Below, piece by piece: positions 3,233-12,376 of a stretch of 25,671 nt of DNA. Position numbers and translations under genes: made by a program. Each line of letters begins with the position of its first letter. The stretch's first letter is position 1. The notes beneath the pieces were generated by a model, which saw nothing but the letters and a program-made list of their open reading frames with translations, was not told the DNA's origin and made no database searches. Source of the stretch: an uncultured Candidatus Saccharibacteria bacterium (lineage in GTDB: Bacteria > Patescibacteriota > Minisyncoccia > JACQLN01); assembly GCA_964373235.1 (NCBI GenBank), contig CAYJTN010000002.1:3510-29180 (forward strand), written 5' to 3'.

Positions 3233-3895
3233 ATGAAAGCACCAATAATTGCTCCGGGCGAATACTACCATATCTATAATCGTGGAGTAGAAAAAAGGAA
3301 TATTTTTCTTAATGAGAATGATTACTGGAGATTTATGACTTTGCTTGTAATATTCCAGGGCAAAGTATATATTCCTCAAATCTCCCGTGTGGTTACCGAT
3401 GTCAAACATTCAATGTTTGACAAAGAGCTATTTATAGAAATTCTATCAAAACGTACAGTGGAATTGGTATGTTTCTGTCTGATGCCAAACCACTACCATT
3501 TTATTCTAAAAGAGATTAAGGGAGGAGGAATAATTAATTTTATGCAAAGACTAGGAGATGCCTATACAAAGTATTTTAATCTAAAATACAAAAGAACAGG
3601 TCATCTTTTGGGTGGCAGATACCAGTCCGTCCATATAAATAAAGATAATTATTTAAAGCATCTTTCATCTTACACCCATCTGAATCCTCGTGAATTAAAA
3701 CACTGGATGGGCAGAGAACATCAATACCCCTGGTCTAGTTTTCAAGACTATGTTGGCACAAATCGTTGGGGCAATTTTTTGAATCACTCTATAATTATTG
3801 AGCAATTTAGAAATAAGAAACATTATTACAACTTTGTTCTAACAAGTGAAATTAAAAGTAAGATAAAATCTGGTCTTGACTTATTTATAGATTAG
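3233..3895 (+). CDS. rayT: REP-associated tyrosine transposase (RAYT, IS200-like HUH/Y1 family), copy 1
   Basis: YYHIYNRG, MPNHYH (HUH), YFNLKYKRTGHL..GRY, YTHLNP (catalytic Tyr), YPWSS motifs; flanked by hairpins. Confidence 0.92.
   Translation: MKAPIIAPGEYYHIYNRGVEKRNIFLNENDYWRFMTLLVIFQGKVYIPQISRVVTDVKHSMFDKELFIEILSKRTVELVCFCLMPNHYHFILKEIKGGGIINFMQRLGDAYTKYFNLKYKRTGHLLGGRYQSVHINKDNYLKHLSSYTHLNPRELKHWMGREHQYPWSSFQDYVGTNRWGNFLNHSIIIEQFRNKKHYYNFVLTSEIKSKIKSGLDLFID
3400..3422. repeat. REP-like hairpin, family A, inside the RAYT1 coding sequence
   Basis: tgtcaaacattcaatgtttgaca, identical over 23 nt to the flanking copies; encodes part of DVKHSMFDK. Confidence 0.9.
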
Positions 3896-11113: not shown

Positions 11114-11159
11114 CCACATGTTAACAACCACTGTCCGATCGAGCAATGAGTGTTAACAT
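11114..11159. repeat. 46-bp palindromic-ended direct repeat, copy downstream of the PaaX/Cas2-like gene
   Basis: ccacatgttaacaaccactgtccgatcgagcaatgagtgttaacat; 11-bp inverted arms at 11116-26/11151-61. Confidence 0.92.
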
Positions 11160-11175
11160 GTAAAACAGATAAAAA

Positions 11176-11706
11176 TCATGCTATTTCTAAGGTGCCACTT
11201 TTATTGATGCTGACAATTTGAACTTTATCTTTAAGTTTTAGATAATCTAAAGATTTTATAAATTTTTCTGGCAAAGGACGGTAGCCCATCCAAACACTTT
11301 TTTGCAACTGTCTAAAACCGCAAGCTATAAGCTGAACTCGCACTAATCTTCTTTTCCCACTTTCTGTTTCGGGTATATCAAACATAACCAATCTGGTAAT
11401 ACCATCCTCCTTCGGCAAGCTTGATTCCACTACATCTTTTACAGAATCTTTTCCTTTGTTCGTAATAAGCCACAAGGATTTTCCCTGTAATCCAGTTTTA
11501 GCAACCAAGCCTTGTTTTTTTAAACGGGAAAGTATAGCTGAAAATGTTCTGGGAGAAAATTCATGGCCAGTTGGCAAACCCAAAACTTGCCGCCACATTC
11601 TGCCTTCGGCGCGATTGCGAGGTAAAACCGCCTCAAGAGTTAGTTCACCAGCCTCTTGGAATTTTTCTAAAATTAGATGGGTTAGAGAAATCTTACTTTC
11701 CGCCAT
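11176..11706 (-). CDS. PaaX-like protein: winged-HTH plus Cas2-like (PaaX central) domain
   Basis: wHTH-like segment TFSAILSRLKKQGLVAKTG...WLITNKG; Cas2/PaaX-like LVMFDIPE..RR..R..L..CGFRQLQKSVW. Confidence 0.85.
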   Translation of the reverse strand: MAESKISLTHLILEKFQEAGELTLEAVLPRNRAEGRMWRQVLGLPTGHEFSPRTFSAILSRLKKQGLVAKTGLQGKSLWLITNKGKDSVKDVVESSLPKEDGITRLVMFDIPETESGKRRLVRVQLIACGFRQLQKSVWMGYRPLPEKFIKSLDYLKLKDKVQIVSINKSGTLEIA

Positions 11707-11741
11707 AAAACAAATTTAAAAAACTCAATCACAATTTATAC

Positions 11742-11787
11742 CCACATGTTAACACCTAGTGTCCGATCGAGCAATGAGTGTTAACAT
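11742..11787. repeat. 46-bp palindromic-ended direct repeat, copy upstream of the PaaX/Cas2-like gene
   Basis: ccacatgttaacacctagtgtccgatcgagcaatgagtgttaacat; 43/46 identical to 11114-11159. Confidence 0.92.
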
Positions 11788-11828: not shown

Positions 11829-11857
11829 TTGCATTCAAAATTGTCTTGGTATATAAT
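11829..11857 (+). promoter_or_regulatory. sigma70-type promoter TTGCAT-17bp-TATAAT
   Basis: -35 at 11829-34, -10 at 11852-57, exact 17-bp spacer. Confidence 0.75.
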
Positions 11858-11863
11858 GTGGAA

Positions 11864-11941
11864 ATAGTTGGCTTCGGCCTCACCCCCGCAAGGGGGAGAA
11901 TGTGAAAAGCCGCTTAGAGTATGTCTCTGGCGGCTTTTCTT
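11864..11941 (+). ncRNA. Candidate small structured RNA of about 75-80 nt (family not recognised)
   Basis: Lies between the promoter and a terminator and contains no ORF; GGC-UUCG-GCC and CCCCC-GCAA-GGGGG tetraloop hairpins. Confidence 0.5.
11905..11938. terminator. Bidirectional intrinsic terminator
   Basis: aaaagccgc...gcggctttt 9-bp stem extended by agag/ctct. Confidence 0.75.
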
Positions 11942-12091
11942 ATGCTCAAAAAAATCTTTTTTTCAATAAATCCAATTTTCTCCACAAGACGGCGTGTATC
12001 CACGATTCGTAACTGGGACAGATTGGCCCTGGCTGGATAACCTCCAACTATGCCAACAGAAACTCTAAGAGGATGTTCGCGTTTGGTTGGA

Positions 12092-12376
12092 TTACATAAA
12101 CTCGCGAGCTAAATCATTTAGCCTTTTCGATTTCATGAATAGCGAACTAAAAAATGAAAGAAAAAACAAGGCGCCCCATATCATACCTATACGGATGACC
12201 AGCGATTCCCAAAAAGACGGAAGGGAAGACACTACTGCCAAACACACAACAAATACAACACACAAAAGAACCATACGGAATACGATAATTGCCTTTTTCT
12301 CAAACCATTCATATATCTTGATGGCCATAAAAAAAGGCTTCATGATGCAGAGCATAAATACTTCGATGGTCTTCAT
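12092..12376 (-). CDS. Small hypothetical membrane protein (94 aa, two predicted TM helices)
   Basis: Two hydrophobic stretches; strong SD GAGGAGG upstream. Confidence 0.65.
   Translation of the reverse strand: MKTIEVFMLCIMKPFFMAIKIYEWFEKKAIIVFRMVLLCVVFVVCLAVVSSLPSFWESLVIRIGMIWGALFFLSFFSSLFMKSKRLNDLAREFM

Follow-up and report, generated by a model that had tools for sequence, protein, structure and literature searches.

What does it mean that a single gene lies between two long and almost identical palindromes? The question is raised by the gene of a 176-residue protein in the window studied here, that is, the whole 25,671-nt stretch of DNA, which represents contig C2 of a patescibacterial source genome of 607 kb in 63 contigs (G000 in our labelling). 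Such a layout could be that of a regulator with its operators, of an enzyme with its cutting sites, or of RNA signals at gene ends. As shown by comparison between genomes, the palindrome-gene-palindrome segment, hereafter the cassette, is a unit of evolution that has been copied, lost and, at least once, inverted, and its palindromes seem to have been homogenised within the genome. The reading that we prefer, with a rough probability of 0.5, is a self-recognising cassette: a dimer of the protein would bind the flanking palindromes, the upstream one serving as an autorepressing operator, while the palindromes would also act as recombination boundaries and the cassette would seed solo copies elsewhere. 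No publication on this protein family or layout was found in the literature on PaaX with Cas2 or on transcription factors and palindromes of Patescibacteria.

The 176-residue protein and its bracketing repeats

A repeat search of the window located two 46-nt direct repeats (Table 1), which are identical at 43 of 46 positions and lie 628 nt apart from start to start. Both are imperfect palindromes with an arm complementarity of 76-78% around a central CGATCG; the arms read ATGTTAACA...TGTTAACAT in either copy, and the architecture can be written as TGTTAACA-N9-CGATCG-N9-TGTTAACA. The open reading frame (ORF) between them stops 16 nt before the downstream repeat and starts 35 nt from the upstream one. 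The 42-nt repeat pattern matched twice in the window, compared with no match in 100 shuffles. Repeat length, 43/46 identity, inverted arms with CGATCG and the gaps of 16 and 35 nt had all been described in the original prediction, made from the letters of the window, and each of these details was confirmed by the repeat search and the ORF call. The arms are AT-rich and the inner stem pairs poorly, with a hairpin potential of -7 to -10 kcal/mol. A T-run follows the downstream copy on the gene strand, and the register of the candidate -10 element beside the upstream copy agrees with a family-wide enrichment of -10-like hexamers described below.

In a Pfam scan, the protein matched the Cas2-like domain PaaX_M (PF20803) over residues 101-170 (7e-12; 45.7 bits against a cut-off of 24), and nothing further was significant, including the PaaX N-domain, HUH/Y1 (IS200-like) and other transposase domains. 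Among NCBIfam models, the full-length PaaX equivalog TIGR02277 remained below threshold (23.9 bits, cut-off 264.55) and the Cas2 model TIGR01573 fell just under it (23.0 bits, cut-off 24.5), and PADLOC Cas2 models matched at about 1e-5 within residues 105-142. The AlphaFold model, based on a 32-sequence alignment (predicted local distance difference test score of 73 overall, 85-90 in the C-terminal domain), comprises a winged helix (helix-helix-helix-strand-strand) followed by a beta-alpha-beta-beta-alpha-beta domain. Foldseek ranked the PaaX structures 3L09 and 8A39 on top, with 160-170 aligned columns, followed by the winged helices of PadR and LmrR, and a profile search aligned the recognition helix with MecI/BlaI (E ~0.01) and with E. 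coli PaaX. The C-terminal ligand-binding domain of PaaX (PaaX_C) is absent, as the protein stops at residue 176. Based on the Pfam, NCBIfam, model and Foldseek results, we take the ORF to encode a two-domain minimal PaaX-type protein, predicted to bind DNA and to consist of a winged helix and a Cas2-like dimerisation domain, with no ligand domain.

Alignment of 32 diverse members revealed D101, R105, D110, E113, R119, R123 and LQKSVW to be invariant. The C-terminal Cas2-like domain is thus marked by an invariant FDIPE / KR..R / LQKSVW motif, in which D110, the Asp of FDIPE, takes the Cas2 catalytic position. These Cas2 hallmarks are gone in E. coli PaaX, where profile alignment places LLLLS--EG opposite the RLVxFDIPE of the present family. 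The predicted combination of a winged helix with a Cas2-like domain was borne out by the model, the PaaX_M match and the invariant hallmarks, albeit with the Cas2 model threshold missed. That cas1 and a CRISPR array are missing had been stated as well and holds: Cas1 (PF01867) was unmatched in the source genome, in a search whose control was positive in 7 of 14 reference genomes, and no CRISPR array was found in the window. Homologues are restricted to Patescibacteria, where they are annotated variously as hypothetical, Cas2 or PaaX. Of 301 genomes sampled from the phylum, 76 contain PaaX_M genes, typically in one or two copies, with nine in the source genome and a maximum of 12 in one genome.

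Palindrome classes within the genome and across the family

Eight of the nine family genes in the source genome are bracketed by a palindrome class of their own. The class motif of the window occurs at 15 places, all intergenic, and falls into type A (8 copies, both window copies included), which has an asymmetric core, and type B (7 copies), whose core is ACGATCGT. A type-B copy stands on each side of the paralogue on contig C7 (62% identical), and a third variant brackets the one on C35 (55%). A second subfamily of about 190 residues contributes six genes, five of them bracketed by near-perfect 34-40-bp palindromes that have different arms and retain the CGATCG centre; the near-perfect cognate palindromes lie upstream of the genes of this subfamily.

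With a palindrome centre defined by at least 8 of 14 flanking pairs around CGATCG, 55 of the 102 genomic CGATCG hexamers are palindrome centres (about 1.1 expected), and 52 of these 55 lie between genes. About seven arm classes can be distinguished, with 2-9 copies each. Solo repeats, for which the original prediction had proposed a genome scan, do exist: about 30 solo palindrome regions were found, mostly just past stop codons. In co-directional regions the palindrome is closer to the stop of the upstream gene than to the start of the downstream gene in 13/13 cases, while 5/20 solo regions are convergent and 2/20 divergent. Within one intergenic region, palindromes that belong to different classes lie in clusters at distances of 59-100 bp, and one composite module of this kind exists twice, the linker being identical. 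Identity is about 0.8 within the 40-nt palindrome and drops to about 0.3 immediately beyond.

All eight type-A copies share the asymmetric core, which deviates by 2 nt, in one half, from the symmetric form. The symmetric form flanks the closest homologues (84-87% identical), and an 81% homologue in the same synteny is flanked by a CCC/GGG core form. As a one-sided change at eight dispersed sites would hardly arise by point mutation, the shared core implies copying or conversion from a single master copy.

In 41 related genomes, the distribution of the motif was examined with reversed-pattern controls. AACA-N9-CGATCG-N9-TGTT was found solely where the present subfamily occurs, with 16 matches in the source genome, and the controls gave 0 everywhere. 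The motif was not found in congener G003, which is without the subfamily, in G009, whose sole homologue has other arms, or in 30 genomes of other families. Of 29 homologous loci, about 25 have the gene enclosed by a palindrome whose core is CGATCG or a near variant and whose arms differ between paralogue lineages. The analysis was extended to 80 further loci from Sung-, Giovannoni-, Davies-, Curtiss-, Moran-, Doudna- and Nealsonbacteria and others. Here, a core-centred palindrome within 200 nt was present on both sides at 40/80 loci, on one side at 28/80 and on neither at 12/80, against a background of 0.011 per 200 nt. A motif-free test, which compared the best ungapped match between 5' and 3' flanks with a null of mismatched loci, exceeded the null maximum in 34/79 loci. 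The suggestion that homologues carry clade-specific flanking repeats is supported by these counts (about 25/29 and 68/80 loci with a palindrome) and with the lineage-specific arms.

Measured to the palindrome centre, the median distance is 50 nt upstream of the start codon and 35 nt downstream of the stop. In upstream copies, the enrichment of -10-like hexamers mentioned above falls at +18 to +41 relative to the core, immediately past the gene-proximal arm. E. coli PaaX represses its own gene through promoter occlusion at an operator of the form TGATTC-N27-GAATCA (PMC9493321), and the spacing of half-site centres, 32 bp in the present palindrome, is 33 bp in that operator (PMC9493321). The downstream copy is present with 23/32 convergent and 28/46 co-directional next genes. 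It was considered as an operator of the next gene and rejected as such, as it is equally common with convergent neighbours and rpiB has no site in the empty genomes described in the next section. The original prediction had argued that a copy past the stop is not needed for simple autorepression; its independence of the orientation of the next gene agrees with this, but the geometry fits a PaaX-type operator as well. A T-run follows 27% of downstream copies and 12% of upstream copies.

Several further observations on the palindromes were made in the source genome. The solo site at C1:820 lies inside a 268-nt relic of the 3' end of another paralogue. Class 2 (8 copies: C1:6353, C3:78, C4:2821, C10:15384, C13:9702, C24:4428, C27:173 and C50:4347) and class 3 (4 copies: C1:4233, C1:24759, C16:5234 and C18:3460) are without a cognate gene between two of their copies in this assembly and nearly always lie 59-100 bp from a class-1 palindrome; their cognate genes may be unassembled, since several of these palindromes are at contig ends. 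CGATCG-centred palindromes with 11-14 of 14 pairs also occur at C5:1155, C6:7027 and C15:2835, within ORFs of 295, 539 and 408 residues. On C22, an 81-nt direct repeat (1921-2000 and 3336-3416; 97.5% identical) encloses a 1.4-kb segment consisting of a second-subfamily paralogue plus its own palindromes. Other short repeat families, 80-150 nt long, 85-100% identical and unrelated to the CGATCG palindromes, are abundant as well, an example being C1:9161-9307 with copies on C8, C40, C17, C13 and C22.

Copying, loss and inversion of the cassette

Most paralogue lineages hold their own conserved synteny across genera. The clade of the window protein (support 100/96) occupies three slots, namely gap-rpiB, a position downstream of a DUF4012 gene, and one next to eno-glyK-2HADH; a slot was counted as shared when any neighbour family within 2.6 kb was shared. 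The loci L172 and L177 differ by only about 0.08 substitutions per site, and their homology (L172:2310-3062 and L177:2900-3661, 84.7%) is bounded 18-19 nt outside the upstream and 6 nt outside the downstream palindrome. Compared with the window, homology starts exactly at the outer palindrome edge. DNA is likewise shared only from palindrome to palindrome in the other different-slot pairs, L015/L077 and L052/L053, whereas same-slot orthologues of similar divergence, which served as controls, share flanking genes. The gene therefore behaves as a unit.

Besides the cassette, the gap-rpiB slot of the window holds a 94-residue ORF and a promoter-to-terminator unit, all within one segment (Table 1). 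Two congeners have neither this segment nor a palindrome, and in them gap and rpiB are translationally coupled, the stop of the former overlapping the start of the latter (ATGA). An insertion is therefore the simplest explanation of the 1.5-kb segment. An empty allele of a second lineage is likewise without palindromes; the cassette is present or absent as a whole. Between G006 and G001, the palindrome-gene-palindrome segment is inverted and its flanks are collinear. In Sungiibacteriota, one locus has the order gene-palindrome-[2 kb]-palindrome-frr (L089:1070-3096) and another gene-palindrome-frr (L094:3060-3100); the 2-kb segment encodes a 194-residue unknown protein and a TrmB-like winged-helix regulator.

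Traces of the movement itself were sought in several ways. No target-site duplications were present at four junction pairs. Assembled contigs of four public DNA metagenome runs (Logan) yielded no convincing circular, excision or inversion junction, which is a weak test because it covers contigs only, and contigs break at palindromes; two short-sided skips of the rpiB-gap segment and one low-depth 797-nt skip were uninterpretable. Excision by recombination between both copies at the gap-rpiB slot was rejected, as no palindrome is left behind in the empty alleles of G003, G004 and G007. Cleavage at the centre with insertion into solo sites found no support, as relocated copies conserve the outer half-spacer and not the inner one, and empty slots are without a palindrome. 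For the original prediction, in which the gene moves or excises as a 628-bp unit, the outcome is accordingly mixed: different-slot copies do share palindrome-to-palindrome DNA only, but the excision junctions and circles it anticipated did not appear in these contigs, and the empty rpiB-gap alleles carry no leftover repeat where a single one had been expected. Its alternative picture, a gene fixed in synteny without empty sites, agrees with most lineages in the first respect, while empty alleles do exist.

A 78-nt promoter-like element (TTGACT ... TGATAAGA) was observed 100-200 nt downstream of the cassette at three loci with different neighbours (L172:3263-3340, L177:3765-3842 and L175:3736-3773). 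It is 94% identical between loci and absent from the source genome, and it may be part of the mobile unit or a separate repeat. In the window, the promoter-to-terminator unit had no Rfam match at gathering thresholds (two tRNAs were the sole matches of the window scan), and the 94-residue ORF matched no Pfam family; the homologous locus L173 has a 103-residue ORF at the corresponding position, and G008 apparently has none.

Different species and genera have some solo sites at orthologous positions in common; the three boxes are preserved in these, and the spacers have diverged (Table 1). Neighbours of solo sites include mfd-like, dprA, recG-like, UvrD-like, RecN/SMC-like, ogt, ftsK, hrcA, groEL and htpX genes, a list that is suggestive of a DNA-repair/stress regulon. 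No paa genes adjoined any palindrome site examined, a genome-wide paa search not having been made. Palindromes also precede frr by 30-70 nt in the source genome (C3:78-170) and in Sungiibacteriota (L089, L094), two very distant lineages, either by coincidence or at an insertion hot spot; the idea that frr is a deeply conserved target was rejected, since a palindrome precedes it in 1/30 genomes sampled across the class.

Table 1. Features of the window (coordinates in the window) and solo palindromes at orthologous positions (G labels denote genomes, G000 being the source genome)
Feature	Location	Strand	Remarks
Downstream palindrome copy	11114..11159	.	16 nt past stop; repeat search and shuffles
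Gene for the 176-residue minimal PaaX-type protein (predicted)	11176..11706	-	ORF, Pfam, alignment, model, Foldseek
Candidate -10 element TATAAA (gene strand)	11735..11740	-	between upstream palindrome and start; inferred from sequence
Upstream (promoter-side) palindrome copy	11742..11787	.	asymmetric type-A core; repeat search and shuffles
Promoter-to-terminator unit	11829..11947	+	near-consensus promoter TTGCAT-17-TATAAT, ~75 nt without ORF, strong terminator hairpin; divergent from cassette
Hydrophobic 94-residue ORF	12092..12376	-	good ribosome-binding site; between gap and cassette
Entire rpiB-gap segment	11018..12537	.	cassette, 94-residue ORF and promoter-to-terminator unit; compared with congeners
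Orthologous solo site	between mfd-like gene and dprA		G000, G002, G010
Orthologous solo site	upstream of UvrD/PD-(D/E)XK helicase		G000, G005
Orthologous solo site	near RecN/SMC-like gene		G000, G002, G004
Orthologous solo site	after gpmI		G000, G005
Orthologous solo site	between corA-cysS and hrcA		G006, G010

Readings of the locus and comparison with known systems

In the self-recognising cassette that we favour, a protein dimer would span the palindrome of about 40 bp, with its two winged helices reading the paralogue-specific NACA/TGTN arms some 32 bp apart and the conserved Cas2-like core facing the invariant CGATCG centre. The upstream palindrome, abutting the gene's own promoter, would be the autorepressing operator, and the palindrome just past the stop would close the unit. 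The palindromes may be the places at which host recombination or gene conversion drives turnover of the cassette, in which case no catalysis by the protein would be required. By analogy with the repetitive extragenic palindromes (REP/REPIN) of proteobacteria and their REP-associated tyrosine transposases (RAYT), the best reading may be a REP/RAYT-like logic that operates on a PaaX/Cas2-like binder in place of an HUH transposase.

Several points weigh against this reading. Every functional step in it is one that we infer. Inheritance is mostly vertical: on an IQ-TREE tree of 61 proteins, the slot labels cluster significantly (31 changes compared with 43.8 after shuffling, 0/200 shuffles as low), so relocation is rare, and the slot definition is itself crude. 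Where homology ends sharply, the cause could in part be selection on functional parts and not the limits of a copied segment, and the right-hand boundary is less clean because the 78-nt element is common to L172, L177 and L175. Bracketing pairs show no significant bias of direct over inverted orientation (18:9:13, p = 0.12), palindrome copy number is low at 2-9 per class, and the orthologous solo sites look like selected operators, not drifting repeats.

We consider it somewhat unlikely that the gene encodes no more than a transcription factor that regulates itself and a small regulon, and for which the palindromes would be operators only. The downstream copy would then be the second anchor of a repression loop of about 640 bp, comparable to OL/OR of lambda CI or O1/O2 of LacI, but this copy is found family-wide, whatever the orientation of the next gene. 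Relocated copies would be ordinary gene duplications that took their operators along, in agreement with largely vertical inheritance and with bracketing pairs free of orientation bias. The PaaX fold and the operator geometry speak for such a regulator, whereas its proteins have no sensor domain and keep as invariant the Cas2 hallmarks that true PaaX has lost. Upstream sites stand in -10 register, the second subfamily has near-perfect cognate palindromes upstream of its genes, and solo sites are kept at orthologous positions (those of mfd-like/dprA, the UvrD/PD-(D/E)XK helicase and corA-cysS/hrcA); yet the solo sites are nearer to stops in all 13 co-directional regions, with convergent (5/20) and divergent (2/20) regions making up the others, and a palindrome upstream of frr recurs in just 1/30 genomes across the class. 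Moreover, likeness within a class goes far beyond what binding specificity needs, as with the eight dispersed sites that carry one asymmetric derived core.

An active Cas2-fold enzyme, as the original prediction had hypothesised, is in our opinion unlikely. Its winged helices would dock on the arms and the dimer would nick or cut at CGATCG, so that a sequence-specific nuclease or recombinase would propagate and homogenise the cassette and the solo palindromes; cutting would drive copying, gene conversion, inversion or relocation, as in a REPIN/RAYT-type or homing-type element. The residues invariant in 32 sequences and lost in E. coli PaaX would suit this, and the invariant domain parallels the invariant CGATCG, just as arms and paralogues co-vary. 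However, Cas2 can fulfil its structural role in Cas1-Cas2 without its own conserved residues, and conservation is therefore no proof of catalysis. The concerted change of the type-A core at eight loci, the end of between-slot homology at the palindromes, the insertion of the cassette in a coupled operon junction, one inversion and one 2-kb cargo between two palindrome copies would all be natural products of such an enzyme. Against this stand the lack of target-site duplications, the empty alleles without a palindrome, which give no sight of insertion into a pre-existing solo site, the weak hairpin potential, and the contigs of the four metagenome runs, which, as a weak test, contain no junction, circle or inversion variant. 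Relocation events are rare as well. In favour of the enzyme, RAYTs too are passed on vertically and stay in fixed synteny.

It is very improbable that the palindromes are chiefly RNA or termination signals, that is, 3'-end hairpins (terminators or stabilisers) or protein-assisted roadblocks with the bracketing as a by-product, as their location just past stop codons, the T-run behind the downstream copy of the window and the twofold higher frequency of T-runs after downstream copies are set against a majority of copies without a T-run (which led us to reject the terminator as a general explanation), AT-rich stems that pair poorly inside, upstream copies in promoter register, and paralogue-specific arms whose co-variation with the winged-helix protein indicates recognition of double-stranded DNA.

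Patescibacteria, also known as the Candidate Phyla Radiation, are ultra-small bacteria. To our knowledge, almost nothing is known about their gene regulation and genome dynamics, and they have few recognisable regulators. The present family occurs in about a quarter of the sampled genomes and comes with a readable protein-to-DNA code: as each paralogue has arms of its own around a core that does not change, binding sites, and possibly targets, should be predictable from sequence alone. Since the palindromes form the borders of a unit that undergoes copying, loss and flipping and also populate gene 3' ends in a REP-like manner, the system could show a regulator-operator pair on its way to a repeat system, shading into a selfish or domesticated one. 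If the retained Cas2 active-site residues are functional, they may reveal what a stand-alone, repeat-recognising Cas2 relative does, with implications for how the CRISPR adaptation module arose. Should the nuclease or recombinase reading be true, the family would represent a previously unknown class of REPIN/RAYT-like or homing elements in Patescibacteria, with a free-living Cas2 relative that recognises repeat DNA by itself.

Among known systems, an intrinsic terminator differs from the palindromes in having a stable GC-rich hairpin (-7 to -10 kcal/mol here) and a T-run (here at 27% of downstream copies). Classical insertion sequences and transposons differ by target-site duplications, absent from the four junction pairs, and by a transposase domain, for which Pfam gave no match. 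With BlaI/MecI, whose operators are TACA/TGTA, the family shares an alignable recognition helix (E ~0.01) and an ACA/TGT core in the arms, whereas its dimerisation domain is another one, its half-sites are far more widely spaced, and no partner for signal-dependent proteolysis was seen. Cas2/VapD proteins resemble it in sequence over beta1-alpha1-beta2, in the Asp that ends beta1 and in the Q-x-S-V-[FW] motif; unlike them, it is fused to a winged helix, the genome has no cas1 and the window no array, and the TIGR01573 score is just sub-threshold.

The best structural match is PaaX, the phenylacetyl-CoA-responsive repressor of the paa catabolon (8A39 from E. coli W, 3L09 from Jannaschia), which has the same winged helix, Cas2-like central domain and PaaX_M match. 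PaaX binds a long palindrome in which the half-sites are spaced by about 33 bp, and it represses itself by promoter occlusion (PMC9493321); similar binding and autorepression are predicted here. Unlike PaaX, which has about 310 residues, the 176-residue protein has no C-terminal ligand domain; the present family retains the Cas2 hallmarks and has an invariant central CGATCG and a second site past the stop, and its genomes hold 1-12 paralogues, each with its own palindrome class, together with solo sites at gene 3' ends.

Compared with the REP/REPIN-RAYT systems of proteobacteria, the present protein is without an HUH/Y1 transposase domain and its palindromes number in tens, not hundreds; they are long, tripartite and weakly pairing, whereas REPs are compact hairpins. 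What both have in common is a gene bracketed by putative cognate palindromes, one repeat family per paralogue, solo intergenic copies behind genes, mosaic clusters and largely vertical inheritance, and the skew of solo sites toward gene 3' ends is the distribution known for REP elements.

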